Under the pieces are notes generated by a model. It made no database searches and had not been told where the DNA came from. It saw only the letters and a list, made by a program, of their open reading frames with translations. Below, in pieces: positions 1-15,687 of a DNA stretch of 16,705 nucleotides. Both the position numbers and the translations under genes were made by a program. The stretch is from Thermoplasmatales archaeon SW_10_69_26 (lineage in GTDB: Archaea; Thermoplasmatota; SW-10-69-26): assembly GCA_003009755.1 (NCBI GenBank), contig PXUB01000033.1, positions 1 to 16,705 on the forward strand, written 5' to 3'. Positions within the stretch are counted from its first letter, which is position 1; every line of letters begins with the position of its first letter.

Positions 1-3000
1 CCGTCACCGTATCACCCACGGGCGAGCCCCCGCGCTCGATCGCGATCGCCGGCGGCTGGTTCTCCTCACCCACGGTGACCGTCACCATCTGCGTGTCCGT
101 GAGCCCCTCGGCCTCGGCGGCGAGCGTGATGTTGTGCTCGCCGACCTGGCTGTCCTCGGTCGGGGTCCAGGCGAACGTGGCCGTCGGCTCGGCGGTGGTC
201 TGGTTCTCGACCGTGAACGTCGCGTTGGAGGGCACGTTGCTGGCGGTGAGTTCGACGGGGTCGCCGTTGGCGTCGGTGGCGTTCGCCGTGAACGTGACCT
301 CGTGACCCAACCGCGTCGTCGGATCCGGCACGGGCTCGATCACAGGCCCGTCGTCGGTCACCGTGATCTCCACCTGGTCGGTGGTCTCGGCACCGTGCTC
401 GTCCCTGGCGGTGACCTCGAGCACGTACGTGCCGCGGTCCCTCGCGTCGATGTCCGTCCACGCGAGCGTGCCGACCGGGGCCGCGGTCCCCTGATCCTCG
501 ACGCTGAAGGTGGCGCCCTCCTCCAGCGGGGTGCCGCTGGCGGACAGCTCGACCGCGTCACCCTCCTCGCTGCTGGCGCTCACGTTGACCGACAGGTCCT
601 GCTCGTGGGCGCTCTCGACGGCGATCGGTGCCTCCAGCGCGGGCGCGAGGTTCCCGACGGTGACGGTGCGGGTCGTGGTGGACCGCATCCCCTCGGCATC
701 CTCGACCGTGAGCTCGACCTCGAAGCTGCCCAGCTCGTCGTAGGAGTGGGTGGGGTTGGCCATGCGACTCGTGTCCCCGTCGCCGAAGTCCCACTCGTGG
801 AAGACGATCGGCGCCGACCCCGGACGCGAGGTGTCGTTGAACTGAACCTCGTCCAGCCGGGTCGGCTCCTCGGGCTCGTAGGTGAACGAGCTGACAGGCT
901 CGACGAGGCAGCCGTTGTCGAGCGTGACGTCCGGGTTGGGGCCCTGCCAGGGCTGGAACTCGACGGTGTTGTCCTGGCCCTCGTCGAGGATGCGCTCCTC
1001 GATCGCGGCGCGGTGGTAGGCACCCCAGTCGTTGCAGGTCGCCTCGACAGTGAGACCCTGCGTGCCGCTGGTCAACGCCAGCGGGACCGTGGTGGTCTCC
1101 AGCCGCGTGTTGTTCACCGTGACGTCGGTCGGCTGCACACCGGCCTCGCCAGCGGCGAGCTCGACACCGCCCGTTTCGCCGGTGTTCACCCGATCGTTGG
1201 CGAGCGTGGCGCGGCGAGCCTCGTCGAGCTCGACGGCGAGCGTGTTCGCGGTCAGCTCGTTGTCGGCGGTCGCGACGTCGGTCCCGGTGACGGCGATGCC
1301 GACGTCGTTGGCCGTCAGCGTGTTGGCGGTGATCTCGGCGTCGTCGCCGTCGACCTGGATACCGGTCCCGAGCCCGTCGGCGGCGACGTTCTGGACCCTG
1401 GCATTCTTCGCCGTGTCACCGACCAGCAGGCCGGCGGAGGCGCTGGTGTCGAGCGTCGAGCCCTCCAGGCCCAGACCGGCGACGGTGGCCTCGTCGGCCG
1501 TCACGCGGATCGCGGGCTCGTCGGTGGCGCGTCCCTGGACGGCGACCTGGTCGTTGGCGACCCGGCAGGCATCCCCTCCGGGGGCGGCACAGAGCCTGAG
1601 CCCCTCGTGGGGGATCGTGACCGATTCGACGTAGGGCGTCGCGTCGACGCCGGAGCTGCCGGGGAGCAGCACGGTTCCCTCGGGCCCTGCGGCGTCGACG
1701 GCCTCCTGCACGCCGACGTAGGTCTCGCCCGTGTCGGCGACGATCGGCAGGGCCGGATCGGGAGAGCCGTCGGGGAGCAGGAACGGCACCAGCTTCAGCA
1801 CGTTGTCGGAGCCGTCGTCGGTGGCGCGTTGAGCGACGAGCTCGTGATCGTAGACGCTCCAGTCGTTGAGCCGGGCATCCACGGTGAGCTCCTCAACGTC
1901 CGCGTTCACGATCAGCGCCTCGGCGTTCGTCAGGTTCAACTGGTTCTCGCGGAGCCTCAGACCGTCGGGCTGGGTCTCCGCGGCGCACGTGGCTTCACCG
2001 CAGGCGCTCACCTCGACGGCGGCCGCATCCTGACCCTCGAAGTCGTTGGCCTCGATCAGCGTGTCCTGGGCGCCATCGTGCACCCAGACGCCCGAGCCCT
2101 CGCCGTCGACGTCGGTGGTCTCGAGCAAGTGGAGGGTGATCGCGTTGTCGCGAACGACGGCGTCCTGCGTCCCCGAGAGGCTGATGGCGCGAAGCCCGTT
2201 CGTCTCGAACGTGTTCTCGACGATCGTGGGCGATGCGTCGGTACCCGCCTTGATCGCCGAGCGGGTGATCTCGGTGAACGTGTTCCCTTCGATCGTACCC
2301 GGTGCGTTGGCGTCGGCGGCGACACCGGCGTGATCCCAGCGGCTGAACGTGTTGGCGTCCTCGGCGTCGGGGCCACCGATCTGGTAACCCTCACCCGCAT
2401 CGGGGTGCAGCTGGACGCCGCGCTGGTTCTCGGCGGGGCTCTCGTCCTCGAAGACGTTGCCCTCCAGGACGCTGCCCTGCAGCGTGAAGCCGGGGGCCTC
2501 ACGGGCCTTGATGCCGCCGCCGAACCCGGACAGGCCCGAGTTCTGGATGGTGAGACCCTGGATGGTGACGTCCTCGGCCTCGACCTGAACCGTGAAGGCT
2601 TCCTCACCTTCGGCGTCGACGACCGTCTGCTCGGTGTTCGCCGCGCAGGGATCCTCGAGCACGGGCTCGCCGGGCTCGAACTGGGGGTCGGGTGAGGTGC
2701 TGCAGATCCGGAGGCCGGTGAGCCTCTCGGCCTCGGTCTCGTCGGTGTCGTCGCCGTTGCCGTTGCAGTCGATCGTATCGTCGGCGCAGTTGTTGCGGTC
2801 GACGGTGGCGGGCCCGTCGTACGTGTTGGGCGTCAGAGTGCCTCCGTCGGAGGCGGGGATGGCGACGGTCACGTCGGGGTGGGCGAAGTCGACGGCGGCT
2901 TGGATGGTCGCGAACACGCACTCCTCGTCGCCGTCGCCGTCCTTGTCGATCCAGCGTGTATCCCCGAGACCATCCCCGTCGGCGTCGTAGCCACCGGTGG

Positions 3001-3691
3001 TCGTCTCTCGGTCCGGGTCGATGCAGTTGGACTCGGTCTGGCTGTGGTGGGCGTCGCCGACGAGGACGGGCAGGCCGGGTTCGGCGGTGCCGTCGTCGAG
3101 CAGGAAGGGGGAGAACAGCGCGGTGCCGGCGCCGGTGAGCTGGTCCTCGACCGCATCGGACGTGTCCAGGCCCCAGTCGTTGAGGCGGAGATCGGCGTCG
3201 ATGCCCTCTGCCGTAGCAACCGTGCCGTCGATGCGGTTGAAGTCGAGGACGGCGTCGCCCTCGACCGCGACGAGGGGAGCGGTGGAGCCGTCGGGGTTCT
3301 GGATGGTGAGTTCGGTGAGGCTGACGCCGTCGGCAGCGATGGCAAGCGTCGGATCGGCGGCTCCGTCGCCGTCGAGGATCGTCGAGCTGCGATCGGTGCC
3401 GACGATCTCGACAGGCTTGTCAACGGTGACGGTCTCTGCATAGGTGCCGGCCTCGACCTCGATCGTGTCGCCGGCGGCGGCGTGGTCGACGGCGGCTTGG
3501 AGCGACGCGAAGTCGGCGTCGCCATCGTCGTCGACGACGATCGCGGATCCCTCGTGGCTGGCGGCGGCCGGCGCGGACAGGGCCGCGAGGCCGGCGGTCA
3601 GGAGAACGGCGGCCAGCGCGAGGACGGCGGGCCTGGCGAACGTCGAAGCTGCTGAGCGAGAATCGTTGGCACGCGATCGAGTGCGGTTCAT
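1..3691 (-). CDS. Large secreted/surface protein (3'-truncated at the window edge, >1230 aa): signal peptide + 3 right-handed parallel beta-helix (pectin-lyase/NosD-like) modules + PKD + at least 2 Ig/cadherin-like (He_PIG-type) domains
   Basis: I translated this by hand and found no stop between the ATG at 3691 and position 1, consistent with its absence from the ORF track. GGGAGG lies 6 nt upstream. N-terminus MNRTRSRANDSRSAASTFARPAVLALAAVLLTAGLAALSAPAAA|SHEG. Beta-helix N-caps DFASLQAAVD..GDTIEVEAGTY, VFATIQAAVD, YVGVQEAVD; C-caps DLRLNDWG, DARLNDWS, EATCNDWG. PKD motif HEWDFGDG..PTHSYDELGSFEVELTVED (~650-900). Ig-like motifs GATFSV..LAWT..GTYVLEVTARD and NATFTV..FAWTPT..VGEHNITL. Codon usage is C-ending like the neighbouring gene. 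Confidence 0.92.
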   Translation of the reverse strand, partial: MNRTRSRANDSRSAASTFARPAVLALAAVLLTAGLAALSAPAAASHEGSAIVVDDDGDADFASLQAAVDHAAAGDTIEVEAGTYAETVTVDKPVEIVGTDRSSTILDGDGAADPTLAIAADGVSLTELTIQNPDGSTAPLVAVEGDAVLDFNRIDGTVATAEGIDADLRLNDWGLDTSDAVEDQLTGAGTALFSPFLLDDGTAEPGLPVLVGDAHHSQTESNCIDPDRETTTGGYDADGDGLGDTRWIDKDGDGDEECVFATIQAAVDFAHPDVTVAIPASDGGTLTPNTYDGPATVDRNNCADDTIDCNGNGDDTDETEAERLTGLRICSTSPDPQFEPGEPVLEDPCAANTEQTVVDAEGEEAFTVQVEAEDVTIQGLTIQNSGLSGFGGGIKAREAPGFTLQGSVLEGNVFEDESPAENQRGVQLHPDAGEGYQIGGPDAEDANTFSRWDHAGVAADANAPGTIEGNTFTEITRSAIKAGTDASPTIVENTFETNGLRAISLSGTQDAVVRDNAITLHLLETTDVDGEGSGVWVHDGAQDTLIEANDFEGQDAAAVEVSACGEATCAAETQPDGLRLRENQLNLTNAEALIVNADVEELTVDARLNDWSVYDHELVAQRATDDGSDNVLKLVPFLLPDGSPDPALPIVADTGETYVGVQEAVDAAGPEGTVLLPGSSGVDATPYVESVTIPHEGLRLCAAPGGDACRVANDQVAVQGRATDEPAIRVTADEATVAGLGLEGSTLDTSASAGLLVGDTAKNARVQNVAADGLGTGIQVDGDDAEITANTLTANDVGIAVTGTDVATADNELTANTLAVELDEARRATLANDRVNTGETGGVELAAGEAGVQPTDVTVNNTRLETTTVPLALTSGTQGLTVEATCNDWGAYHRAAIEERILDEGQDNTVEFQPWQGPNPDVTLDNGCLVEPVSSFTYEPEEPTRLDEVQFNDTSRPGSAPIVFHEWDFGDGDTSRMANPTHSYDELGSFEVELTVEDAEGMRSTTTRTVTVGNLAPALEAPIAVESAHEQDLSVNVSASSEEGDAVELSASGTPLEEGATFSVEDQGTAAPVGTLAWTDIDARDRGTYVLEVTARDEHGAETTDQVEITVTDDGPVIEPVPDPTTRLGHEVTFTANATDANGDPVELTASNVPSNATFTVENQTTAEPTATFAWTPTEDSQVGEHNITLAAEAEGLTDTQMVTVTVGEENQPPAIAIERGGSPVGDTVT

Positions 3692-3697
3692 CGACAG

Positions 3698-3703
3698 CCT
3701 CCC
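3698..3703 (-). promoter_or_regulatory. Shine-Dalgarno ribosome-binding site for the gene starting at 3691
   Basis: Minus strand reads GGGAGG-ctgtcg-ATG (6-nt spacer). Confidence 0.75.
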
Positions 3704-3731
3704 ATGCTGACCGAAAGCCAGCAGTTGCGGG

Positions 3732-3737
3732 TATAAA
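3732..3737 (-). promoter_or_regulatory. Putative archaeal TATA box for the beta-helix gene
   Basis: TTTATA on the minus strand, ~41 nt upstream of the ATG, in an otherwise GC-rich region. The spacing implies a short leader that would just contain the SD. The BRE match is weak. Confidence 0.5.
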
Positions 3738-3836
3738 CAGCCAGCCCTGCATAAGTGCTGTCCGCCAACCGGGGTAAGCAACACCTTCACGCGACCTGTT
3801 CCCACGTCTACCAGCCGTTGGAGGCGGTGGCGGACT

Positions 3837-3872
3837 GGCCCCGGCCTCCGTCGTTGATGGGAGACCGGGGCC
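3837..3872 (-). terminator. GC-rich stem-loop just downstream of the giant protease gene (terminator or mRNA 3' stabiliser)
   Basis: Minus-strand RNA GGCCCCGGUCUCC-N10-GGAGGCCGGGGCC: a 13-bp stem with one G:U pair, starting 16 nt after the TGA. No U-tract follows. Confidence 0.55.
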
Positions 3873-3888
3873 GTGGTGGGGTGGCCGA

Positions 3889-6800
3889 TCAGCCGTCCTT
3901 GTACGGCTGGTAGATCACGTCGTTGCCGTTCTCCTCGAACCGCTGTTCGACGAGCAGGTCGGTGTAGACGCCCCAGTCGTTGTACCGGGCGTCGTAGGTC
4001 AGGCCGTTCGTGGCGTCGGTGAAGGTCAGGCAGACCGACGTGTCGAGGGTGCAGGTGGACGCCCACATCAGCGAGCCCGTGGGGGCTGCTTGGCCGTCGA
4101 CGTCCTCGACGAGGACGCCCTCGTTCAGCTCGTCGAGTTCGACGTGCTCGATCATCGTGCTCGGCGCGGTCACGTGGGCCCCGCGAGCGGTGTCGTTCAG
4201 GCGAACGCCCTGGAGCGAGGTCCCCTCGGCGGCGAGGGTGAGGGCGGTGCCTTGGGGGGCGGTCAGGTTCACGCTCGGCTCCGACAGGCAGCGATCGGCT
4301 GCGTCGGTGCTACCGCACAGCGTCACGCCCGGCGTGTCGACGGTGAAGGGGCCGGTGTAGTTGCCGGGCTCGACCCACACGGTCCCGTCGGTCGGGACGG
4401 CGGCCAGGGCCTCGTCGATCGTCTGGTAGCCCAGATCCTCGGAGGTGCGCGCCGCGCGGGGCACGTCCTCGACAGTGATCTGTACGCTCTCCTCGACCGT
4501 CACGTACGTGTCGTTGGCGCTGAACGTGACGGTGTAGGTGCCGGCCTGGTCGGCGGTGGGTCGCCACGTCAGCTCGCGGGCGTCGGCGTCGAAGGTGGCG
4601 CCCTCGGGCAGCCCGGAGGCGTCGACGGTGAGCTCGGCCTCGGTGTTGTCGCGGTCGCTGACGTCGACGGGGACCCTCAGCGTCGTCATCTCCTCGACCG
4701 TCTGGTCGGGGATGGGGGCGATCTCGGGGGCGCGGTTCTCCACGGTGACGTCGACCGTCGCCCGGGTGCTCGTCGCGCCGTCGTCGTCGACGACCTGCAC
4801 GGTGGCAGCGAAGGTGCCCTGCTGCTCGTAGGTGTGGGTGAGCGTCGGGTCCTCGGTCCGGATGGGATCGGTCCCGTCGCCGGGATCGAACACGTACTCC
4901 GCGATCGAGCCGTCGACGTCGGTGCTGTTCCCGGCGTCCAGCGTGCGCTCGGTGTACGTCAGGTCGCGCTCGGGCGAGACGTCGAGAGCCGCCCTCGGGG
5001 CTTGGTTGAGGACCTCGATGGTGTGCGTGGCGTCGTCGGTGGCGCCGTTGCTGTCCTCGACGGTGAGCTCGACGGTGTAGGTCCCCTGGGCTTCGTAGGT
5101 GTGGTTGACCGTGGCTCCTGTCAGCGAGGTGCCGTCCCCCATCGACCACCGGTAGCTTTGGATCGCACCGTCGGGGTCCTGGCTGTCGGTCGCGTCGAAC
5201 GTGGCCGGCGTGAAGGTGGCGATCTCGTCGGGAGCTTGGACCGCGGCCGTGGGTGCGAGGTTCTCCGCGACGATCTCGACGGTGTCGAGGGTCGACCAGC
5301 GGCCGTCGTCGTCTCGAACGGTCAGCGTGGCGTTGTACGTGCCGGGCTCGGTGTAGTTGTGCTCGATCGTGGCCGCATCCGTCGTGACGGAGCCGCTGTC
5401 GTCGCCGGGGGTGAACCGGTAGGTGGTCACGGTCCCGTCGGGGTCCGCGGAGGCGGAGCCGTCGAGGGTGACCGTCGTGTTCATGTCGGTCGTCGTCGGC
5501 GAGGCGTCGAGGACGGCGTCGGGTGCCGTCGTGACGGTGACGTCGTTGCGCGTGGGTCCGTTCATGTCGAGCCCGTCGAAGTAGCGGGCCTCGATGCCGA
5601 CGTCGCCCTTGGACGAGCTGGCGTCCCAGTCGTAGGTCCAGGTGGCCCACGAGCCATTGGGGCCGGTGGCGGTGGCCGGTCGCCAGTCCTCCTCGGCGCC
5701 TAGCGATTCGTCCGCGGTCTCCTCGCGGAACTCGACATAGCGATCGCCGACGGCGGCGACGTCGGTGGTCGCGGTGTCCTGTCCGGCGTCGTTGGTGGCG
5801 GTGACGTTGACGTCGTAGCGCCCGGGCTCGGTGTAGGCGTGCGTGACGGTGCTGTTATCGGTCGTCGTCAGGGTCGACCCGTCCCCGAACTCCCACTCGT
5901 AGGTGACCGGTGAGGTGCCCTGCGAGAGGTTGACGGTGAAGTTCACGGGTTGGTCGACGTCGGCTCGCGAGGGGTCGGCCGCGAACGACTGGATGCGCGG
6001 CGGCTCGTTGTCGGCGACGTTGTCGACGGCGAACGCGACGGTGTCGCGCACCTGGTCGCCGTCCTGGGTCGTGTAGAGAGCGCTCGCGGAGTAGTCGCCG
6101 TCTCCGACCTGGGTGCTGTCCCAGCCCGTGGACCAGCTCTGCACCCCGTCGGCGTCGGTCGGGCCGAAGACGGTCTCGCCGTCGGCCAGCCGGGTGACGG
6201 TCACCTCGACGCGTTCGTCGGTCGTCTCGGCTTCGGGGGTGGCGGTCACCGTGTCGGAGGTCGGGCCTTCGACGCCGTCAGCGACGGCGCTGACAGTGTA
6301 CCCGTAGGATTGGCCGTTGATGACGTCCGTGTCGGTGTAGCGGGTCTCGGTGATCTCGGCGACCTGGGACCCATCGCGGTAAACGCGGTAGTCTTCGGCG
6401 CCGTCGACGGGCGTCCAATCGAGGTGGACCTGCTCGTCGCCAGCGGTGGCCTCGAGGCCGGTGACTTGGGCGGGCGCGGTCGGCTCGGTGACCTCCGGCA
6501 CGGTCAGGGACCAGGGGTTGTCGGGACCGCCGCCGAACACGGCGTGCGGCGGGCCGAAGTAGGCGTCCAGCTCCTGCGAGGAGTCGAACGTGATGGCGAG
6601 CTGGAGCGTGGAGCCGGCCGCCAGCGTAGTCGGCGCACCCGAGTCGAACGTCAGATCCACCATCCAGGGGTACTCCTGGAAGGTCAGCGGGCCGACCGTG
6701 GCGCCGGTCTCGCCGACCGCGCCAGGCTCGCTGGCGGTACCGACCTGAGCGGAGACGTCGATCGGGGCCAGCGCGCAGTCCCCGCACGGGAAGCCCGAGA

Positions 6801-9800
6801 CGCCGGTGCGGACGGAGACGGTCTCGCCGGCGGCGATCTCGAGGTCGCTGTCGAGCGTGGTGGTGAACACCATCTCGAGGGGTTCCTCGGTGCAGCCGAA
6901 CGCGGTGTGCGAGGCGCTCTCGCCGGTCGGCTCGGTCTCGGTCAGCGGTCCCTGCAGCCCGGTGCAGCTGTCCGTTGCGCCGCTGCGCTGCTGGAGCGTG
7001 GCGAGCACGTCGTCTGGGTGGAAGGTGCGCGGCTCGACGGTGCCCACCGATCCGTCGTCGATGCTGTCGGTGAACGGCAGGGTGAGCTGCCAGCTGTCGG
7101 TTTCCTCGCCGCGAAGGTCCACGCTGTTGTCGTCCTGCGTTCGGTAGGTCACGACGACGTCGACGGCGGCGCCCTTAGGCACTGTGCCGTCCCAGTCGTC
7201 GTCGACGAGGACGTCGAACGTGACGGTGTTGGGTTGTTGGGCGATGAAGTTGGCCGTCGTGGAGCCGCTTGCTCGCTTCTGCCCGTCGACCAGCACGTCG
7301 AGCTGGATCTCAGCCTCGATGTCGGCCGGGGCCGAGAACGTGAGCTGGGCCTGCCCGACCCCGCCGGGTCGCACGAGCAACTCCTGGCTGGGAGCCGGGA
7401 GCAGCGGGAACGTGTCCGTGCCGTCGCCGGCGACGCTGATTGACGTGGAGCCACCGGCGTTGCTCTCCGGATCGTCCTCGTCGGCGCTGGTCCACTGCGA
7501 GTCGATCGTGCTGTCGCCGTCCTCGTCGCGTAGGTGGAAGAACAGCGTGTCCTGGCTGGGGCTGGGTTCGCCGCCGGCGTGGCCGTGGGCTTGCACGGTC
7601 ACCGTGTCCGCGACGGTGGAACCGTCGAGGAGGGTGGCCGTGAGCGTGAGCTCGTGGGTGCCGGGCTCCTCGTAGACGTGGTCGAGCACCGCGGGCGGGG
7701 TGCCGAACCCGGTGAGGCTGGTGCCGTCCCCCCAGTCGACGCGCCACTCGGTGATGGTGCCCTCGGTGTGGGTCCGGATCTGCGTGGAGAGCGGCGCCTT
7801 GCTCTCGGTGGGCGTGAGCGGTTCGACGAGGATGCCGCCCTCGCTCGTGGTCGACGTGGAGTCGGCGCTCGTCGGATCCTCGGCGGTGCCGGCGATCGTG
7901 ACGGTGCCATCGACGGTCTCGTCCTGGGCGGGCGTCTCGATCGTGACCGACGGTCCGGGGGTGTCGGCCTCGTTGTTGACCGTGACGCCAACGACGTCTT
8001 CGTCGGTTGTGGAGCCGGCGGTGACCCGCGCGGTGATGGAGGTGTCGCCGTCGTCGGCCTGCGTCGTATCGAAGGTGGCCGACCAGTCGGCGGTCGCGTC
8101 GACCGTCTTCGTGCCGAGCTCGGGGATCTCGACGGTGACCTGGCCCTCGGAGGCCTCGGGGCTGACGGTGACATCGGTGCCGGCGGGAGCCTGGCCGGTG
8201 TCGGCGGGGCCGCTGGCGCCGTTGGCGCCGAGGGACACGATGCCGAGCAGATCGGTCAGCCTCTCGCCGTCCTGGACGGAGTTGCCACCGGAGTCCTGGA
8301 TCGCGGTCTTGGAGACGTTGAAGGCGACGAGGTCGTCCTCGGGCGCCCAGTAGCCATCCACGTACTGCTCGAAGCTCCACTGGCTGGCGGCTTCGCCGGG
8401 CGCGGGCTCGGCGCGGGTCAGCAGCCGGAACTCGGGGGTCAGGTTCGTGTCCTGGTTCTCGGCGCTGAAGACGGGGTTGATCTTGCTATCCAGCCAGAAC
8501 TCCTGGTCGGCGTAGCTGAACTGCACTCCATAGCGCAGATACTCGGCGTTCGTCGGTTGCTCGGGGAGGTCTGCGACCCCGATCCCGAGGTTGAACCGGT
8601 CGTCGCTTGGCCCCTCGTCGCCCCAGGCGTACCCGGCGACCATGTCGGCGCGGTCGAGCGGGAAGCTGCCGGCCCCGAAGAGGCTGGCGTCGCCCTCGGG
8701 GTCCGTCCACAGCGGATCGTCCAGCGACAGCGAGGGGTCCGGCGAGGGAACGTGGGCATCCCCGGTGACGGTCAGGTCGTCGGACACGCTTGCGCCGTCG
8801 TCGGGCTCGGTGATCGCGACGGTCAGGTCGTCGGCGACGGTAACTGTGGTCGTGTCGGTGGCTTGTTGGTCGTCGGCGTCGGTGACGGTGAGCGTGACGT
8901 CGTACTCCCCGGCCTGCGTCCAGGTGTGCGCGATCTCGGCGCCGGTCTTCGTGTTGTCGTCGCCGAGCTCCCACTTATACGAGTACTCGGGGGTCCCGCC
9001 GGAGGCCGAGGCCGACAGCGTCGTCTCGACGTCGGGCGCGGTCTCGTAGGGGCCACCCGCGTCCGCGGTGAACGCGTCGTCGGGATCGTAGCGATCGCGG
9101 GCCTCCTGGACGGCGAGGTAGGCGTCCACGTTGCCGTAGCCGACGACGGGCGCCCACTGCCCGGTGGGCTCTTGGTCGCCAACGTGGGCCGTCTGCGTGA
9201 GGATCTCCTTGACCTCGGTGGGTGTGAGGTCGGGGTTGGCCTCGTACATGAGAGCGACGACGCCGGCCACGATCGGCGCTGAGAAGCTGGTGCCGCTCGA
9301 GCACTCGTTGTAGGCGTTATCGTTGGCGCTGGTGGGCATGGCCACGCAGACGCCGGGAGCCATGACCTCGGGCTTGTCGATCGTGGTGTCGGAGGCGGCC
9401 ACGCTGCCGGAGGCCCCGCAGGGGGAGATCCAGCCCTTCGCGAACCCGCCGGCACCGTGGCAGGGGACGTCGTCGATCCGGGAGACGCTGTTCAGGGTGT
9501 CGATGTTGCCGACGGTGATGGCTCGCTCGGCGGTCGCCGGGGAGCCCATGGTGCCGAAGTTGCCCGAGGAGGTGACGACGACGAGGCCCTGCTCGGCGGC
9601 CTGGTTGATGCACGTGTCGTCGGCGCTGCTGATGGGGACGACCGATCCGTAGCTGAGGCTCGCGACGCGGATGTCCGCCGGGTGGTCGATCGTCTTTTCC
9701 AGGGCCTCGCAGGTGCGCGTTGCAACGGTTCCCGTGTTCGGGTCGGGCTCGGACAGGGCCTGCACGTTCAGGACACCGGCCGCGGGCGCCGCGCCCACGT

Positions 9801-12800
9801 GGGTGGCGGAGGGGCCGCCGGTGCCGGCGGCCGCGCCCGCGCTCTTCGTGGCGTGCGCGGCGTTGGACTCGTGGTCGAAGATCGCCAAGCGGTCGATGAT
9901 CTTGGAGTCGCTGGCGTTCTGTGTCTCGTTCGCGAAGGTCTGCCACTCGAAGGCTTCGTGGGATTCGCGTACGCCGCTGTCGAAGTTGGCGTAGCCGACG
10001 TCGCGACCGGTGAAGCCCAGGCACTCGCTGGCGCCCCAGACGCACTCAGAGCCGTAGGTGGTGGATTGGCGGGCCTTGGTGTTGGGCACGTTGAGGGCCA
10101 GGTGCTTCTCGGCAGGCGGGGACCACTCGACGCGGATCGCGCCGTCGTGGTCCAGCAGGTCCCGCACGTTCTCGGCTTCGACGCCCTCCAGGGTGACGGC
10201 GTCGATCAGCCACAGAGCCTTGGCACGGTCGGCGTCGGCGAGATCGCCAAGCGCCTGCTGGTCGTCCTCGGTCGCCTCACGGTCGAGCAGGACCTTCACG
10301 TCGAAGGGGCCCGAGGAGGAGTCCATCTCCTCCTCGAGGGGATCCTGCACGCCATCGCGGTCGGCGTCGTCGTCGAACGGGAGCGTCCACATGCCGGCTT
10401 GCGTGGTGGACGTGGACCCGTCGTCGGTCGAGCCGTCTTGGCCCGATCGGTCGCTGGTGGTGCCGTTGACGGCCACGGTCTCGGGGTCGAGGAAGGCCCC
10501 GTCGGCGGGCTCGTCGATCTCGACGGGCCCGCTGTCGGTGACGAGGACGGTCACCTCGTCGGGCGGCGAGGTCTGCGATCCGTCGTAGTACTCGGCGGAG
10601 ATCGTGACCTCGGTCCCGTCGGCGATGGACGAGAAGTCGTGGTCGAGGTGCCAGTCGCTCCAGTCGCCGCTATCGTCGACGGCTTGCTGGAGGGGGCCAT
10701 CGGCCACGCGCACGTAGACGCCCTCCTGCTGGGGTCCGACGTCGATCGTCGTGCTCGCGGTCGCGGAGCGGTCGCCGGTGTCGGTGACGGTGAGCTCGGC
10801 GTCGGCGTTGAGCTCGCTCTCGTAGGTGTGGTTGACGGTGAACGTGCCGTCGTTGTTCAGCGGAACGTCGAGAGGGGCTGAGCCGTCGCCGGGGTCGAGC
10901 TGGACGGTGTCGATCGGGTCCGAACCGGGGCTCACCTCGCCGGTGAACGTCACGGGTAGCGGAGCGTTACCGGTCGTCGGGTCGGCTGCGAACGCCGCGA
11001 CCGTCGGCGGGTCGGCCTGCTGTGCGTCTTGCAGCTGGTAGTTGCGGCCGGTATCGGAGGAGGATGTTGGCGGAACCGTTTCCTCGGGGCCGCCGCCCGG
11101 AGCGCGGTCCACGGTCGGAAGCACGCTGACGGGGCTGGGCGCCCCGGGCACGCGCATCCGGGACTGGAGGTAGGGCTCGGTGAGACGGTCGCCGACCTCG
11201 AGCGCGTCTCCACCGAGGGCCCCTTCCCAGGCGTCGAAGGGGATCGTGGCGGTGAGGGTGTCGTCTTGGATCTCGACCTCGAACCCGCCTTCGACCTCCG
11301 CCCACCCGGCCCCCTGGGCACCGCAGCCCAGGCAGTAGGCGGAGGCGCTGAACGAGGGGTTCTGGGCACCGTCGGAGAGGATCCAAAGCCCCAGCGTGCG
11401 GCTCTCGTGCTCGAAGTTGAACTCCCACTCGGCCGCGGAGGAGCCGGGGTGGGGCAGTGCCGGATCGAACCCGTGCACGTCGACCGTGGCGGTCAGTGAG
11501 GAGCCGTCGTTGGCGAGGAAGGCGTTCTCGAGGTCCATGCTGCGGTAGGGGTCGGGCAACTCGGCGGGGTCGTCCTCGGCGAGGACGCGGAACCCGTCAG
11601 CGTTGCCGCTGTCGTCCCCGTCACCTTGGCTCGCATCCGCGACCGGCAGCTCGATGTGCGAGGGCGTGGTCGGGCTGTCGTAGTACACGCTGTAGGCGGG
11701 GCCGACGTTCGCGTATTCGACCCAGAAGCGGAGCTGGAGCTCGGCGCCCTCGTCGACGACGATGTCGCCATCATCGTCGGTGGGAACGGTGAGGTTGCTG
11801 GTCGACTCGTCGTACTCGGAGCCGTTCAGGACCTTCTCGTAGTTCTTCCCGAGCTTGAGCGGGATCGAGGCCTCGGTGGGGATCTGGTTGGGGAACGGAC
11901 CGTCGTCGGTGTACGTGGAGGCCAGCGTCACCGTGCCGCTGTCCGTGACGGCGTTCAGTTCGGCGTTGAGGCCCTTCACGAATACGGTGTTGCTCCACGT
12001 GGAGATGTGGAGGTTGGCGGTGGCCTCGTCGACGGTGTCGGGGTCATCGTCGCCGAGATGGAGCTCCTGGGCGAGAGGCCCGCTGTCGATCTGGAGGGGC
12101 AGCGTGTCGAGGCTGCCGCTGTGGACGGTCGGCGCCTCGCCGTGGGGCTCGGCGGTCGAGAGGTCGCCGCCCGCGACGCCGAGGTCGCCGCCTTCGATCG
12201 TGGCGGGCGCCGTCAGCTCGGCGCCGTCGGCGTCGGGTGCTCGGTCGTCGGGGGTGAGCCCGTCGGCCGAGGCGGTGTAGGATGTGACATGTAGGTTCGT
12301 GATGGGATCGCCAGGGGAGGCGCCGATCTCCGTCCACGGGATGGTGACGGTCACGGCGTCGTCGGCGAGGTCGGCGGTCACCGTGGCACTGGTGTCTGCA
12401 TCGACGGCGTCGGTCACCGTGGGTCCGTTCGCGCCGAGCTGCACGGCGTACCGGTGGGCTTGGCCGGCGTGCTCGAAGGCGAGATGCCAGGCGGTCGGGG
12501 CCAGGCGGGCGTCCTCGACGTCGCCGGCGAGGTCGGCGGTGACGTCCAGCGTCTCCTCGTCGGTGGCGGTCCCGAGGCTTCGGATGTCGGCTTCGCTCGT
12601 GGATGCGTCTCCGGCGTCGTCGGTTGTTGCGGTCTGCGTGAGGTCGCCGTCGACGCGGGCGTCGAGTGTGAGTTGGGACCGGTAGAGGTCGGAGCCGTCC
12701 CACTTGAGCCGAGTGGCCTCGCTCCCGGCGAAGAAGTCCGGCGTGAGGCCGACCATGATCTTGTTGCCCTGCTCGAAGGTGTAGGAGTCGGCGCCGGAGT

Positions 12801-15687
12801 GCTGGTAGGCCAGCCGGTTCTGCATGCAAGCGCCGTCGACCGGGTCGTTGTCGAGGAGGGTGGCGTTCGCGTACTCGTTCCCCGGGTTGCTCAACGCGAG
12901 CTGGCTCTGGCCGTCACTGATCTCGTACACGTCAGCGAAGAACAGGCCACCGCCGCTGTCGGCGATGCAGGTCGTGAGCGAGGCGCCTTGGGCGACCGTC
13001 CAGGGGTTGCCGTCGGTGTCGGTGATCGTCTCCACACCCTGGGCCAGCGTGATGTCCGCGGGCAGGGGCTCGGAGACGAAGACAGCCGGGTGCTCCTCGA
13101 CGACGTCAGCCTCGTCGGCGAAGGTCTGCTGGGCGATACCGCTGAGGCCACCGCCGACGAGCGCGTTCTTGGGATCGTTGCCCGGCGTGGGGGACATGGT
13201 GCCTTTGACGGTGTAGGCGTCGTCCGGAGCCGGTTCGGGCGCGTCGGCGAGCGTGCCGTTGTGATAGTGGAAGCCGATCGTTCGGGTCTCGTCCGTGGGC
13301 GTCACGCATTCCTCGACCGTGTTGGTGTCCGTGGCGCCGGTGCTGTCCTGGGTGCGAACCGCGAAGCAGGTCTCCTGGCCAGCGGTCAGGCCGTCGACGG
13401 TCGTGGAGAGGTCGGTCGTCTCCTGGATGGCGGTTTCGTAGTCGATCTCGGGGGTGCCCTGGTAGACGAGATACGTGTAGGGCTGTTCGCCGCCGCTGGC
13501 CTCGTCCCATGCGAGCTCGGCCGTGGTCTGCTCGGCCTCGGCGGTCTTGGCGGTCTGGAGGCCCGCGAAGGTTTGCGGGGTCGTGTCGGAGCCGCCGGAA
13601 CTGCCGGCCGTTCCGGCGATCCGCGTCTCGCCGGACACGCGATCGCCCTCGCTCGGGGTCGTGATGGAGACCGAGGGGGCCTCGACGTCGCTGCCGACGG
13701 TCGCGGTCGTTGTGGCGGTAGCGGTGGTGCCGGTGTCGTCGGTGACGGTTAACGTGACGTCGTAGACCCCCGATTGGTCGTAGGCGTAGGTGAAGCTTGC
13801 ACCGGTCTCCGTGGTCCCGTCACCAAGGTTCCAGGTGAACTCGTAGGGGGAGTCGCCATTGCTGGCGGTCCCGGTGAACGCGATCTCCTGGCCGGTCGCG
13901 GCGGTGTACGGGCCGCCGGCGTCGGCGGTGAGGGAGGTGGCCAAGCCGCAGACCTCTGTCACGGTCGTCGAGGGCGTGGCTCCGTTGGGCTGGAGGACGT
14001 TGGCCCAGGCCCAGCAGAGCGCGCCGAAGGCGGAGACCTCGCCGTAACCGAACCCGTTGTTCCACGTCAGTCCGTCGGCGCCGGGTCCCTCCCACTTGTC
14101 GATCATGTCGTCGGGGACGCCAGCCGTCCGGTAGTCGGCGGCGTGGATGAGGGCGTCGCGGACCGGATGCTCGCCCGGCACGTGGTCGCCGTTGTTGTCG
14201 AAGCCGCGTCCGTCGGGCTCCATCAGGTTCTCGCCACCGGTCTCGTCGCTGACCTCGGCACCGGCCTGCAGCAGGAGGGCCGAGATGCCCGCGACGTGCG
14301 GAGTAGACATGCTCGTCCCCGTCTTCTCGGTCCGTGTGCTGATGGCGCCACATTCCGTGATGGCGCAGGCCGCCTCGATATCGGTGCCCGGGGCGGTGAT
14401 GTCGGGCTTGCGGTGACGGTCGGCGAGATCATCAGCGCCGGTGGCACCACCGGCAGCGCCGTCGCCGCCTCCGCCCTCGCTGTTGGGTCCCCGGCTGCTG
14501 GAGGGGTTGATCCGGTCGTCGATGCGCGAGATCGTGGAGCGATCGTCGGCGTTCGCGACGCCGAGGGCGCCGGCGGCGTTGCCGGGGCTGGAGATGCCGT
14601 TCTCCTTGTCCCCGAAATCGCACAGGCTGGAGGGCTGGGGACCGCAGTTGCCGACGGCGATCGTGACGGCGACGCCCTGCTCGGCCAGGTTCGTGATCGC
14701 GGACTCGGCGCTGCCGGCGTTGGGGCCGCCGCGACCTGCCGAGCCGAAGCTGAGCGTGGCGACGTTGATCTTGTCGTCTTCGCTGGCGCCGCACTTCGGC
14801 TCGCCGTTCTCGATGGCCTGGTTCCACTCGTGCACGAACTCGAAGCCGCGGAGCGAGCCGCCCAGCGAGACGATGCCACCGCTGATCTCGACCTCCACGA
14901 GCTGGGCCTCGGGCGCGGTCCCGCCGGCCGCCTCAGCGGGGTTGCCGACGGCGGTCGAGGCGACGTGGGTGCCGTGGCCGGAGCGGTCCTGGTTGTCGAC
15001 GCACTCGATCGTCTGCGGTGTCGAGACGTCGGCTCCCGCGACCCGCTTGCCGCTCGGGAAGGCCGGGTTGGTGTTGTCGACGCCACTGTCGAGCACCGCG
15101 ACGACGGAGCCTTCACCCTGGTATCCCAGCGTACCGGCGGTTTCGCCGGCGTAGGGGCCCTCGAGTGCGCCAGCGTCCCGGGACTGGGTCGCCGGTGCGC
15201 TGACGTCGAGCGTGCGGTTGAGTTCGTAGTCGTGCTCCACGGCGACGACGCCGTCGAGGTCGCCCAGCGCGCCGACTTCGTCGGCGGGGACTTGGGCGTT
15301 GATCGTCGGGATGAAGCTGAACCGATAGGTCTCGACGGCCCCGTGGGAGGAGGCGAGGCGGTCGACGTCGGTCTTCGTCGGATCGTGGTCGTAGGTGAGC
15401 AGGACGGGGACGAGCTTGTCGGGGTTCCCGTCATCGACGTGCCCTTGGGCGATGGCCTCGGCTTCGTCGTCGACGAGGTTGTCGTCCTCGTCGAAGGCGT
15501 CGAGCCACGGTCCGACCCAGTCGGGGGCCGAGCCGCCGCTCGTCGTGGCGGCGGTACCGGTCGGGACCACGGAGGTCAGGGGTCCCGCCAGCATGGCGAC
15601 GGCGAGGAGCACGGGGAAGAGAGTCGTTTCCGAGAGCTTAGCAGCCGATCCGACGACGCTGGAGAACTGTGTGAAGCGATCGCTCAA
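3889..15687 (-). CDS. Giant (3932 aa) secreted double-subtilase: two S8 serine peptidase units with PKD, FN3, Ig-like, DOMON-like, jelly-roll and beta-helix domains
   Basis: Uninterrupted ORF. TTG start with GGGAGG 8 nt upstream. Hydrophobic N-terminal segment LFPVLLAVAMLAGPLTSVV..TAA. Two full S8 catalytic sets: D200/H238/N347/S459 and D1903/H1945/N2043/S2134. Eight PKD motifs (WNLGDG, LDPGDG, WELGDD, VDWGDG, WEFGDG, FTPGDD, WSMGDG, FDPGDG), two FN3-like domains and a terminal beta-helix ending DARYNDWG..QPYKDG. Confidence 0.95.
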   Translation of the reverse strand: MSDRFTQFSSVVGSAAKLSETTLFPVLLAVAMLAGPLTSVVPTGTAATTSGGSAPDWVGPWLDAFDEDDNLVDDEAEAIAQGHVDDGNPDKLVPVLLTYDHDPTKTDVDRLASSHGAVETYRFSFIPTINAQVPADEVGALGDLDGVVAVEHDYELNRTLDVSAPATQSRDAGALEGPYAGETAGTLGYQGEGSVVAVLDSGVDNTNPAFPSGKRVAGADVSTPQTIECVDNQDRSGHGTHVASTAVGNPAEAAGGTAPEAQLVEVEISGGIVSLGGSLRGFEFVHEWNQAIENGEPKCGASEDDKINVATLSFGSAGRGGPNAGSAESAITNLAEQGVAVTIAVGNCGPQPSSLCDFGDKENGISSPGNAAGALGVANADDRSTISRIDDRINPSSSRGPNSEGGGGDGAAGGATGADDLADRHRKPDITAPGTDIEAACAITECGAISTRTEKTGTSMSTPHVAGISALLLQAGAEVSDETGGENLMEPDGRGFDNNGDHVPGEHPVRDALIHAADYRTAGVPDDMIDKWEGPGADGLTWNNGFGYGEVSAFGALCWAWANVLQPNGATPSTTVTEVCGLATSLTADAGGPYTAATGQEIAFTGTASNGDSPYEFTWNLGDGTTETGASFTYAYDQSGVYDVTLTVTDDTGTTATATTTATVGSDVEAPSVSITTPSEGDRVSGETRIAGTAGSSGGSDTTPQTFAGLQTAKTAEAEQTTAELAWDEASGGEQPYTYLVYQGTPEIDYETAIQETTDLSTTVDGLTAGQETCFAVRTQDSTGATDTNTVEECVTPTDETRTIGFHYHNGTLADAPEPAPDDAYTVKGTMSPTPGNDPKNALVGGGLSGIAQQTFADEADVVEEHPAVFVSEPLPADITLAQGVETITDTDGNPWTVAQGASLTTCIADSGGGLFFADVYEISDGQSQLALSNPGNEYANATLLDNDPVDGACMQNRLAYQHSGADSYTFEQGNKIMVGLTPDFFAGSEATRLKWDGSDLYRSQLTLDARVDGDLTQTATTDDAGDASTSEADIRSLGTATDEETLDVTADLAGDVEDARLAPTAWHLAFEHAGQAHRYAVQLGANGPTVTDAVDADTSATVTADLADDAVTVTIPWTEIGASPGDPITNLHVTSYTASADGLTPDDRAPDADGAELTAPATIEGGDLGVAGGDLSTAEPHGEAPTVHSGSLDTLPLQIDSGPLAQELHLGDDDPDTVDEATANLHISTWSNTVFVKGLNAELNAVTDSGTVTLASTYTDDGPFPNQIPTEASIPLKLGKNYEKVLNGSEYDESTSNLTVPTDDDGDIVVDEGAELQLRFWVEYANVGPAYSVYYDSPTTPSHIELPVADASQGDGDDSGNADGFRVLAEDDPAELPDPYRSMDLENAFLANDGSSLTATVDVHGFDPALPHPGSSAAEWEFNFEHESRTLGLWILSDGAQNPSFSASAYCLGCGAQGAGWAEVEGGFEVEIQDDTLTATIPFDAWEGALGGDALEVGDRLTEPYLQSRMRVPGAPSPVSVLPTVDRAPGGGPEETVPPTSSSDTGRNYQLQDAQQADPPTVAAFAADPTTGNAPLPVTFTGEVSPGSDPIDTVQLDPGDGSAPLDVPLNNDGTFTVNHTYESELNADAELTVTDTGDRSATASTTIDVGPQQEGVYVRVADGPLQQAVDDSGDWSDWHLDHDFSSIADGTEVTISAEYYDGSQTSPPDEVTVLVTDSGPVEIDEPADGAFLDPETVAVNGTTSDRSGQDGSTDDGSTSTTQAGMWTLPFDDDADRDGVQDPLEEEMDSSSGPFDVKVLLDREATEDDQQALGDLADADRAKALWLIDAVTLEGVEAENVRDLLDHDGAIRVEWSPPAEKHLALNVPNTKARQSTTYGSECVWGASECLGFTGRDVGYANFDSGVRESHEAFEWQTFANETQNASDSKIIDRLAIFDHESNAAHATKSAGAAAGTGGPSATHVGAAPAAGVLNVQALSEPDPNTGTVATRTCEALEKTIDHPADIRVASLSYGSVVPISSADDTCINQAAEQGLVVVTSSGNFGTMGSPATAERAITVGNIDTLNSVSRIDDVPCHGAGGFAKGWISPCGASGSVAASDTTIDKPEVMAPGVCVAMPTSANDNAYNECSSGTSFSAPIVAGVVALMYEANPDLTPTEVKEILTQTAHVGDQEPTGQWAPVVGYGNVDAYLAVQEARDRYDPDDAFTADAGGPYETAPDVETTLSASASGGTPEYSYKWELGDDNTKTGAEIAHTWTQAGEYDVTLTVTDADDQQATDTTTVTVADDLTVAITEPDDGASVSDDLTVTGDAHVPSPDPSLSLDDPLWTDPEGDASLFGAGSFPLDRADMVAGYAWGDEGPSDDRFNLGIGVADLPEQPTNAEYLRYGVQFSYADQEFWLDSKINPVFSAENQDTNLTPEFRLLTRAEPAPGEAASQWSFEQYVDGYWAPEDDLVAFNVSKTAIQDSGGNSVQDGERLTDLLGIVSLGANGASGPADTGQAPAGTDVTVSPEASEGQVTVEIPELGTKTVDATADWSATFDTTQADDGDTSITARVTAGSTTDEDVVGVTVNNEADTPGPSVTIETPAQDETVDGTVTIAGTAEDPTSADSTSTTSEGGILVEPLTPTESKAPLSTQIRTHTEGTITEWRVDWGDGTSLTGFGTPPAVLDHVYEEPGTHELTLTATLLDGSTVADTVTVQAHGHAGGEPSPSQDTLFFHLRDEDGDSTIDSQWTSADEDDPESNAGGSTSISVAGDGTDTFPLLPAPSQELLVRPGGVGQAQLTFSAPADIEAEIQLDVLVDGQKRASGSTTANFIAQQPNTVTFDVLVDDDWDGTVPKGAAVDVVVTYRTQDDNSVDLRGEETDSWQLTLPFTDSIDDGSVGTVEPRTFHPDDVLATLQQRSGATDSCTGLQGPLTETEPTGESASHTAFGCTEEPLEMVFTTTLDSDLEIAAGETVSVRTGVSGFPCGDCALAPIDVSAQVGTASEPGAVGETGATVGPLTFQEYPWMVDLTFDSGAPTTLAAGSTLQLAITFDSSQELDAYFGPPHAVFGGGPDNPWSLTVPEVTEPTAPAQVTGLEATAGDEQVHLDWTPVDGAEDYRVYRDGSQVAEITETRYTDTDVINGQSYGYTVSAVADGVEGPTSDTVTATPEAETTDERVEVTVTRLADGETVFGPTDADGVQSWSTGWDSTQVGDGDYSASALYTTQDGDQVRDTVAFAVDNVADNEPPRIQSFAADPSRADVDQPVNFTVNLSQGTSPVTYEWEFGDGSTLTTTDNSTVTHAYTEPGRYDVNVTATNDAGQDTATTDVAAVGDRYVEFREETADESLGAEEDWRPATATGPNGSWATWTYDWDASSSKGDVGIEARYFDGLDMNGPTRNDVTVTTAPDAVLDASPTTTDMNTTVTLDGSASADPDGTVTTYRFTPGDDSGSVTTDAATIEHNYTEPGTYNATLTVRDDDGRWSTLDTVEIVAENLAPTAAVQAPDEIATFTPATFDATDSQDPDGAIQSYRWSMGDGTSLTGATVNHTYEAQGTYTVELTVEDSNGATDDATHTIEVLNQAPRAALDVSPERDLTYTERTLDAGNSTDVDGSIAEYVFDPGDGTDPIRTEDPTLTHTYEQQGTFAATVQVVDDDGATSTRATVDVTVENRAPEIAPIPDQTVEEMTTLRVPVDVSDRDNTEAELTVDASGLPEGATFDADARELTWRPTADQAGTYTVTFSANDTYVTVEESVQITVEDVPRAARTSEDLGYQTIDEALAAVPTDGTVWVEPGNYTGPFTVDTPGVTLCGSTDAADRCLSEPSVNLTAPQGTALTLAAEGTSLQGVRLNDTARGAHVTAPSTMIEHVELDELNEGVLVEDVDGQAAPTGSLMWASTCTLDTSVCLTFTDATNGLTYDARYNDWGVYTDLLVEQRFEENGNDVIYQPYKDG
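3892..4440 (-). other. C-terminal short right-handed beta-helix module
   Basis: YQTIDEALAAV..GTVWVEPGNY..VTLCG (N-cap) through YDARYNDWG..YQPY (C-cap). Confidence 0.75.
4465..4737 (-). other. Putative Ig / cadherin-like (He_PIG-type) domain
   Basis: NRAPEIAPIPDQTVEE..SDRD..ASGLPEGATFD..LTWRPTADQAGTYTVTFSAND..VQITVED. Confidence 0.8.
4738..5525 (-). repeat. Three tandem PKD domains in the C-terminal stalk of the giant protease
   Basis: Three ~88-aa units with the pattern AP.A...P......T.D...S.D.DG.I/V..Y....GD......H.Y...GT....L/V.V.D..G. Confidence 0.88.
6235..6485 (-). other. Fibronectin type III-like domain 2
   Basis: PAQVTGLEATAGDEQVHLDWTPVDGAEDYRVYRDG..YTDTDVINGQSYGYTVSAV..EGPTS. Confidence 0.85.
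9100..10392 (-). other. Internal propeptide + subtilisin S8 catalytic domain 2 (approximate bounds)
   Basis: LWLIDAVTLEGVEAENVRDLLDHDGAIRVEW (pro), GFTGRDVGYANFDSG, AHATKSAGAAAG, VVVTSSGN, KPEVMAPG, SGTSFSAPIVAGVVALMYEANPDLTPTEVKEIL, GYGNVDAYLAV. Confidence 0.9.
13297..13587 (-). other. Fibronectin type III-like domain 1
   Basis: TFAGL..AELAWDEA..YTYLVY..TTVDGLTAGQETCFAVRTQD. Confidence 0.75.
14015..15525 (-). other. Propeptide (I9-like) + subtilisin S8 catalytic domain 1 (approximate bounds)
   Basis: YRFSFIPTINAQVPADEVGALGDLDGVVAVEHD (pro), GYQGEGSVVAVLDSG, GHGTHVASTAVG, IAVGN, SSSRGP, KPDITAPG, GTSMSTPHVAG, GYGEV. Confidence 0.93.

Follow-up and report, generated by a model that had tools for sequence, protein, structure and literature searches.

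We have found, with high confidence in its anatomy, a complete subtilase zymogen enclosed in a split immunoglobulin (Ig) domain of a giant archaeal protein. The window, by which we mean the whole stretch of DNA analysed (16,705 nucleotides; positions 1 to 16,705 of contig PXUB01000033.1, GenBank assembly GCA_003009755.1, Thermoplasmatales archaeon SW_10_69_26), is the entire 16.7-kb contig. On its minus strand lies an open reading frame (ORF) of 3932 amino acids (aa), here called the giant ORF, whose product is a secreted and branched multidomain protein. The product carries a first subtilase of family S8 at its head (S8-1) and a second one (S8-2) that forms an intact zymogen module about 1765 aa into the chain, like that of the subtilase Tk-SP of Thermococcus kodakarensis. 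This module follows an Ig N-terminal half-domain, N2, whose partner is probably a C-terminal half-domain far downstream, at aa 3314-3387. Self-cleavage at the internal pro-region would divide the chain in two, and the Ig halves, one on each piece, may hold the pieces together.

Subtilase maturation is textbook knowledge for N-terminal propeptides. An internal propeptide poses the question of what becomes of a chain of 3900 residues once its second protease activates. If Ig halves do hold the pieces, the arrangement would offer a simple, evolvable route to multi-chain extracellular assemblies from one gene, and a protease-operated counterpart of the cleaved-but-attached logic of SEA and GAIN domains. 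Searches of the open-access literature listed no paper that describes such a propeptide within a split Ig. A first-pass annotation of this DNA had proposed a self-cleaving chain of this kind. Its coordinates and quoted strings are all correct (window 10100-10392 is aa 1766-1863, and window 5530-5748 is aa 3314-3386), and its two S8 domains in one 3932-aa chain are recovered by Pfam.

The internal subtilase and its pro-region

The host's class is represented by only 21 genomes in the collection searched. The only ortholog found is encoded in a genome of another family in this class (G007); it is 3958 aa long and colinear with aa 586-3745 of the giant ORF at 44% identity. Positions below are those of the window, and the codon of residue i ends at window position 15687-3(i-1). 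Model confidence is given as the predicted local distance difference test (pLDDT) score of AlphaFold2. The giant ORF and the parts of the internal module are as follows.

Window 3889-15687, minus strand: giant ORF, 3932 aa, TTG start; GC content at third codon positions 0.92 in this frame
Window 10393..10446, minus strand: Ser/Thr/Asp/Gly linker (aa 1748-1765); pLDDT < 50; 10 residues shorter in the ortholog
Window 10312..10392, minus strand: acidic W...DxDxDG..D motif at the start of the pro-region (aa 1766-1792); conserved in 70 sequences
Window 10123..10311, minus strand: propeptide core, I9/Tk-SP-proN-like (aa 1793-1855), by homology and AlphaFold2 fold
Window 10087..10122, minus strand: propeptide/mature junction SPPAEKHLALNV (aa 1856-1867), the expected autoprocessing zone
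Window 9088..10086, minus strand: S8-2 catalytic domain (aa 1868-2200), with D1903, H1945, N2043 and S2134

S8-2 is a subtilase as judged by its family score, by the order of its catalytic triad and oxyanion Asn, and by the subtilisin fold predicted for it. Pfam PF00082 scores 203 bits against a cut-off of 21.8, in two stretches of which the best covers aa 1903-2171. The catalytic codons are at 9979-9981 (D1903), 9853-9855 (H1945), 9559-9561 (N2043) and 9286-9288 (S2134, located in GTSFSAP). In an alignment of 70 sequences of S8-2 relatives these residues correspond to the invariant columns D188, H230, N328 and S419; exactly these four S8-2 positions are invariant, and all are retained in the ortholog. 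The AlphaFold2 model of aa 1716-2290 has a mean pLDDT of 80.8. Its best structural match is Tk-SP (9ues_B; Z 40.7, root-mean-square deviation (rmsd) 2.3 Å, 287 residues aligned), and subtilisin BPN' is matched with Z of about 36 and rmsd 2.0 over 261 aligned residues.

The first-pass annotation had given S8-2 a propeptide-like segment of its own, and this is borne out by homology to stand-alone subtilases, by a profile match to Tk-SP, by the predicted fold and by an alignment of the two pro-regions of the giant ORF. When aa 1718-2205 were searched with phmmer against 1.84 billion representatives, many of the best 150 matches were stand-alone subtilases of about 450-1500 aa. Their alignments begin at query residues 38-57 (aa 1755-1774), at their own residues ~20-60, and a signal peptide precedes the alignment start in those inspected. 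Because these proteins align from just after the signal peptide, the segment before S8-2 is homologous to ordinary N-terminal pro-regions. The profile of the 70-sequence family aligns with residues 31-511 of the ProN-Tk-SP chain (3afg_A; E 2e-117) and, beginning at residue 23, with the unautoprocessed form of pro-subtilisin E (3whi_A). The pro-region of S8-1 and the internal pro-region can be aligned over their full length (108 aa, 26% identical; E 6e-4 from a search of small size). In the AlphaFold2 model the propeptide adopts the order beta-alpha-beta-beta-alpha-beta, with strands at 1795-1801, 1821-1825, 1830-1836 and 1850-1855 and helices at 1807-1816 and 1838-1846; in model numbering the six elements are E80-86, H92-101, E106-110, E115-121, H123-131 and E135-140. 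Block-mean pLDDT across the modelled propeptide is 82-97.

The acidic motif of the internal pro-region is MWTLPFDDDADRDGVQDPLEEE. D1774 is invariant in the 70-sequence alignment, and the conservation of D1782 there is 90% or higher. Stand-alone relatives have the motif immediately behind the signal peptide, and it may represent a Ca2+ site of the propeptide. The motif, as W..W..DxDxDG..D..E, opens both pro-regions of the giant ORF, the other copy being at aa ~55-78. The linker string quoted in the first-pass annotation, SDRSGQDGSTDDGSTSTT, is aa 1745-1762.

A new N-terminus had been predicted near AEKHL (aa 1859-1863) and ALNVP (aa 1864-1868). This falls in the 12-residue junction, and the cut supposed after L1863 lies in the middle of the zone, in which the exact position remains a prediction. 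Structural superposition puts residue 2 of subtilisin BPN' at aa 1860 and Tk-SP residue 115 at aa 1859, which points to a site at ~1859-1860; in the profile alignment, which contains an arbitrary gap of 4 residues, the Tk-SP Ala113/Val114 site falls near N1866/V1867. The junction, in which pLDDT is below 50 at aa 1859-1861, is equal in length to that of stand-alone relatives, counted between a conserved 'VE' and 'L(D)xSxxAxKAR'.

Ig half-domains around the module

In same-class relatives, complete Big_7-like Ig units of ~90 residues stand uninterrupted in tandem arrays. A hidden Markov model (HMM) of 90 positions was built from 18 such complete units, with the consensus PxVxIxxPxxGxxVxGxVxVxGTASDPDG-xVxxVEVRIDGGxWxxAxGTxxWSYxWDTTxxxDGxHTIxARAxDxxG...VTVDN. 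This Ig-unit HMM detected no complete Ig unit in the giant ORF, only the following four N-halves and four C-halves.

Window 13588..13689, minus strand: Ig N-half (a) (aa 667-700); HMM from position 1 (aa 671 onward), E 2e-5
Window 10537..10731, minus strand: Ig C-half (a') (aa 1653-1717), closing the first split Ig; HMM 22-89 (match aa 1642-1717), E 8e-6
Window 10447..10536, minus strand: Ig N-half (b), N2 (aa 1718-1747); HMM from position 3 (aa 1722 onward), E 9e-4
Window 8749..8832, minus strand: Ig N-half (c) (aa 2286-2313); HMM from position 2 (aa 2289 onward), E 2e-5
Window 7972..8148, minus strand: Ig C-half (b') (aa 2514-2572); HMM 27-90 (match aa 2510-2572), E 4e-8
Window 7867..7971, minus strand: Ig N-half (d) (aa 2573-2607); HMM 1-29 (match aa 2579-2607), E 1e-7
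Window 6019..6222, minus strand: Ig C-half (c') (aa 3156-3223); HMM 15-90 (match aa 3144-3223), E 7e-6
Window 5527..5748, minus strand: Ig C-half (d'), proposed partner of N2 (aa 3314-3387); HMM 42-88 (match aa 3334-3385), E 4e-3

For N-halves (a)-(c) the HMM alignments run past the half into the following sequence, and these halves were taken to end near position 28-30. All four Ig domains are broken at the same loop, at HMM position ~28-30, and the inserts within them reach ~1570 aa. Independent support comes from Pfam, which matches Big_7 (positions 2-27 of 70) on aa 2289-2312 and Glucodextran_B (positions 4-28 of 83) on N2. Block-shuffled copies of the sequence gave a highest score of 6.4 bits, and none of 200 reached the 6.5 bits of the weakest half. 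N2 and aa 3310-3390 match the N- and C-parts of the 18 complete units column for column. The view that N2 and window 5530-5748 are complementary halves of one Ig family thus stands on the Ig-unit HMM, the column alignment and the shuffle control.

The order of the halves along the chain is N C N N C N C C, or ( ) ( ( ) ( ) ), which is perfectly balanced. Because of this bracket order and the nesting that it implies, N2 is assigned to aa 3314-3387, the partner that the first-pass annotation had proposed. By this parsimony and by analogy, we regard the pairing as probable. Where a C-half directly meets an N-half, at 1717/1718 and 2572/2573, the junction resembles a normal boundary between domains in a tandem array. 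Between N2 and aa 3314-3387 are enclosed the S8-2 module and ~1100 aa of further domains. Modelled without any C-half, N2 is disordered (model residues 1-49, pLDDT < 50). Identity-profile correlations of the halves against 95 complete Ig units were 0.24-0.51 and preferred no pairing.

All eight halves recur in the ortholog in unchanged order, and its C-terminal end carries one complete unit in addition. The ortholog also retains the linker, the acidic motif, the propeptide and an intact triad. Its equivalent of aa 3314-3387 matches HMM positions 31-89 (E 6e-7). By segment, identity to the ortholog is 50% for N2, 54% for aa 3314-3387, 67% for the acidic motif, 52% for the propeptide core and 52% for S8-2, so that conservation is similar in the Ig halves and in the folded domains.

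Half-domains of this kind escape Pfam, which is of relevance to annotation, and four interrupted Igs with such large inserts represent an extreme natural case of domain insertion. The first-pass annotation had seen in the internal propeptide and protease the reason why the nested layout exists. This explanation is not upheld: three of the four split Igs of the giant ORF enclose no protease (their inserts are FN3, PKD and unassigned beta-rich domains), and the nested layout is therefore a general building habit of the lineage and not a consequence of the internal protease. The split-Ig layout is a general insertion scaffold of this protein lineage that did not arise for the protease.

An independent case in a simpler family

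As read from domain layouts, the same arrangement, a zymogen between complementary Ig halves, is present in a second protein family. P0085 (2114 aa; identical to the L029 ORF at 99.95%) and P0123 (1382 aa) share the layout N-half, low-complexity linker, DxDxDG motif, propeptide, S8, beta-sandwich (jelly roll), FN3, C-half. Alignments with P0144 and P0158-P0161, at 40-48% identity, cover 96-100% of the module. With a threshold of E <= 0.05, the Ig HMM picks up some but not all halves of P0085-type proteins; the rest are recognized by weaker matches (P0085 N 581-601 and C 1403-1453; P0123 N 519-545 and C 1342-1381) and by alignment coverage. The sole split Ig of the P0085 family is the one that encloses the pro-S8 module.

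An AlphaFold2 model of the 890-aa P0085 module, from a 36-row alignment, has a mean pLDDT of 77.6. Its N-half contributes strands 4-10 and 20-29 (block pLDDT 72-80) and is followed by a disordered linker at 31-52. The propeptide again shows the order beta-alpha-beta-beta-alpha-beta. The C-half forms five strands at 831-887 (block pLDDT 62-77). When the model was compared with 48,161 chains using VIA-align, a contiguous 94-residue beta-sandwich, 6tn6_A 401-494, was matched with 92 residues aligned over the model range 3..890 (rmsd 2.4 Å, Z 13.7). The two halves together have ~93 residues, and the FN3 rows are separate and confined to model residues 735-840. Since the aligned length is close to the sum of the halves and FN3 is matched separately, the 6tn6_A row is read as the two halves forming one sandwich. 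In this model the halves of P0085 thus appear to close into a single Ig domain.

Proposed mechanism and alternatives

We propose that S8-2 is assisted in folding and held inhibited by the internal pro-region, as happens in Tk-SP and other subtilases, and that autoprocessing within the junction (aa 1856-1867) would nick the chain into pieces of ~1860 and ~2070 aa. With an Ig N-half upstream of the nick and a C-half downstream, the two chains would stay joined non-covalently via the beta-sandwich, and at first the propeptide-enzyme complex would join them as well. Maturation would yield an assembly of two chains. The clamp topology would be the same for pairing of N2 with any C-half downstream of aa 1867, since each of these is past the cut. 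Cys residues are absent between aa 1456 and 1881, and local pairs cluster on both sides; no disulfide tether across the putative cut is therefore evident. By analogy with characterized subtilases, we consider cleavage at the internal propeptide rather likely, and attachment of the pieces after the cut is plausible. The scenario as a whole, an autoprocessing nick with the Ig halves holding the pieces, is put forward tentatively, at somewhat short of an even chance.

Several observations weigh against this scenario or limit its support. At E <= 1, Pfam Inhibitor_I9 matched neither of the isolated pro-regions. A single-sequence phmmer search with aa 1766-2205 against PDB sequences returned 3 sequences with catalytic-domain matches only and did not reach the Tk-SP propeptide, and the VIA-align lists of both models are dominated by catalytic-domain matches, the propeptide being covered only as part of the whole module. 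The junction is poorly conserved, with 4/12 residues identical in the ortholog (33%). Nesting parsimony and analogy are the basis on which N2 is paired with aa 3314-3387, and a crossing pairing of N2 with aa 3156-3223 may apply instead. The absence of a protease from three of the four split Igs counts here too. In P0024 and P0097 a pro-S8 module lies internally, several hundred residues from the start of the chain, and no Ig halves are registered. The evidence for closure of the halves comes from a relative, P0085, with a moderate pLDDT of 62-80 in the halves, and from alignment ranges and not coordinates. Cleavage of the giant ORF product itself is a prediction from sequence and models.

Among the alternatives, the split Ig might be a generic insertion scaffold, with the cut propeptide remaining tightly on S8-2 as in CspB or PCSK9, where it would link the pieces and keep S8-2 latent until a signal. 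Retention of the prodomain after autoprocessing is described for CspB and PCSK9 (excerpts of PMC3567191), the propeptide core is modelled docked with high pLDDT, and both the protease-free split Igs and the existence of internal pro-S8 proteins without Ig halves fit a scaffold. However, Tk-SP, the closest characterized structural relative, is degradative, its propeptide reportedly undergoes rapid degradation once autoprocessed (excerpts of PMC3567191 and PMC3599501), and the only split Ig of the P0085 family is exactly the one that encloses pro-S8. We regard this alternative as unlikely, yet as one to be taken seriously. An uncut chain, with the tethered pro-region serving as permanent intramolecular chaperone or lid and S8-2 either latent or activated by displacement, would suit the poor conservation and low model confidence of the junction; the internal prodomain of CspBA is likewise not autoprocessed even with its triad restored, according to excerpts of PMC7200643. 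The second domain of CspBA is a pseudoprotease, however, whereas the D, H, N and S of S8-2 are all present and do not vary among 70 relatives, and the junction is as long as in stand-alone relatives, which must mature. These differences make a permanently uncut chain improbable.

Release of the pieces is the outcome to be expected of a true polyprotein, in which the propeptide would be cut and degraded, the Ig halves would fail to hold, and the N-terminal piece of ~1750-1860 aa (protease 1 and branch 1) would be freed from the stalk. N2 has only ~30 residues and is disordered when modelled alone, as such a failure would have it. On the other hand, the conservation of N2 and its proposed partner between families (50%/54%) equals that of folded domains, a C-half without an N-half is an incomplete sandwich, and the halves appear as one domain in the P0085 model; release is thus quite improbable. 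A different pairing, for example N2 with 3156-3223 and N-half 2573-2607 with 3314-3387, or an unpaired, vestigial N2, has in its favor that the C-half stands directly after FN3 in the P0085 family, as aa 3156-3223 does here, and that identity-profile correlations gave no signal among C-halves. Successive insertions, though, yield nested and never crossing pairings, and the order of the halves is perfectly balanced and identical in the ortholog. We give this pairing very little weight, and the clamp idea would survive it.

Beyond the giant ORF, zymogen insertion in an Ig loop could be a recurrent archaeal device, given its occurrence in two protein families. On self-activation, a single translated chain would become a stable, non-covalent two-chain machine. 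The Ig sandwich would be its mechanical latch, and if this gave way under force, at low salt or after a second cut, the head with its protease would be shed. We offer this broader idea as speculation, and doubt it more than we credit it.

Comparison with known systems

The statements on published systems in this section follow excerpts of the papers cited. Subtilases with propeptides of this type fold with the help of the propeptide and then cut the propeptide-mature junction (PMC3567191, PMC3599501). In Tk-SP the N-propeptide is Ala1-Ala113 and is autoprocessed first, at Ala113/Val114 (PMC3599501). Tk-SP (PDB 3afg, 9ues) is the top structural match of S8-2, the family profile aligns through its N-propeptide, and a beta-jelly-roll follows the catalytic domain in P0085-type relatives as well. 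In Tk-SP, however, the propeptide is N-terminal after a signal peptide and the cut removes a small piece, whereas here it lies ~1765 aa in and the cut would halve the protein; the module of the giant ORF also has the extra acidic DxDxDG-type motif.

Among described tandem subtilases with an internal prodomain, CspBA of Clostridioides difficile comes closest. It has two subtilase-type domains, the second with its own prodomain, and autoprocessing would, according to its authors, give two fragments (PMC7200643); the prodomain of CspB remains bound after cleavage (PMC3567191). In contrast to S8-2, CspA is a pseudoprotease without autoprocessing, and the domains are separated by YabG (PMC7200643). 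CspBA is also intracellular, spore-associated and ~1100 aa long, with no split Ig around the module.

Nested beta-sandwiches are exemplified by the pilus adhesin RrgA of Streptococcus pneumoniae, whose domains are built from N- and C-terminal segments with insertions, D3 in D2 and D2/D3 in D1, and whose isolated D2 halves re-associate, even in trans (PMC5333627). The insert in RrgA contains no protease or propeptide, its halves are locked by an isopeptide bond, and it belongs to another fold family and other organisms. The giant ORF, for its part, has four split units with inserts of up to ~1570 aa. In SEA/SEAL and GAIN domains the cut is made inside a folded beta-rich domain and the products remain non-covalently associated (PMC10556640; bioRxiv 10.64898/2026.05.12.724683). 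The cleaved-but-associated logic is shared as a functional analogy only. SEA and GAIN cut themselves by strain or an N-O acyl-shift within the domain, whereas here the subtilase active site would act from an insert far from the sandwich. There is no sequence or fold relationship, and a whole-protein Pfam scan of the giant ORF product at E <= 0.01 found no SEA or GAIN family. Precedents thus exist in the internal prodomain of CspBA, the nesting of RrgA and SEA/GAIN.

The first subtilase and the remainder of the protein

The features of the giant ORF outside the internal module and the Ig halves are as follows.

Window 15193..15525, minus strand: S8-1 pro-region (~aa 55-165), aligned with the internal pro-region and preceded by a hydrophobic, signal-like N-terminus (read from the sequence)
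Window 14008..15180, minus strand: S8-1 catalytic domain (~aa 170-560), with D200 in DSGV, H238 in HGTHV and S459 in GTSMSTP
Window 3892..5526, minus strand: distal stalk (aa 3388-3932), with PKD repeats, a He_PIG domain and a C-terminal domain without family match in Pfam

Both subtilases of the giant ORF are apparently competent, by their motifs. Both modules are Tk-SP-like, and one type of pro-region, an acidic DxDxDG-type motif with an I9-like beta-alpha-beta-beta-alpha-beta core, stands before each of them. The S8-1 head (aa 1-700) is 50% identical in a second giant ORF of the same genome (G000:C34:32776-47529, plus strand). That ORF encodes at least 4918 aa and ends at the contig end; it has the signal peptide, pro-S8-1, PKD and the first Ig N-half in common with the first and then diverges. 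In the ortholog, aa 1-488 (L028 nucleotides 1420-2883) gave no BLASTP match to the S8-1 head, and the two proteins are colinear from the first PKD onward. Since the head lacks a match in the ortholog and is common to the second giant ORF, it looks like an exchangeable module. The first-pass annotation had taken two independently maturing subtilases in one protein as the point of the design. This does not extend to the only ortholog found, which has the internal module and no BLASTP match to the S8-1 head. Judged by these comparisons, the conserved feature is the internal zymogen inside a split Ig, rather than two subtilases per chain.

A homologue search with aa 1650-2320 among proteins of 2162-6881 aa returned the protein's own copy and 6 PKD-only matches, with no full-length relative, and scans of genome contigs with a protein query and a 2-row alignment query found no relative. 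Internal subtilase zymogens may be commoner than the literature suggests. In P0024, similar domains flank the internal pro-S8 module on both sides.

The Pfam scan of the giant ORF gave two Peptidase_S8 stretches, eight PKD_4 stretches and one He_PIG domain. The insert regions aa 800-1545 and 2314-3072 (window ~6472-13290) contain two kinds of beta-rich domains, each occurring 3-4 times. These domains have no Pfam match; their recurrence is supported by weak self-similarity (B1 against B2, for example, E 2e-4). One kind resembles the sandwich after the catalytic domain in P0085-type proteins. The database copy of the giant ORF (P0002) has 3907 aa and is thus 25 residues shorter.

The genome is 2.8 Mb in size and 95% complete. 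Its 16S gene is archaeal (archaeal model, 1498 bits), its GC content is 69% and the crude median isoelectric point of its ORFs is 4.9. The host is plausibly 'haloarchaeal' only if the word is taken loosely, for an archaeon whose proteome is acidic.

Directly downstream of the giant ORF, at window 2-3888 on the minus strand, a large gene of at least ~1290 aa runs off the window and encodes Beta_helix/NosD, PKD and He_PIG domains. The plus-strand ORF 2-2695 is an antisense shadow of this gene, with GC by codon position of 0.92/0.48/0.69. Upstream, at window 15891-16697 on the minus strand, is the 3' end of a 5'-open ORF with PKD/Big_9. With such PKD/Ig-type-domain neighbors on both sides, the giant gene lies within a run of large genes of this kind.

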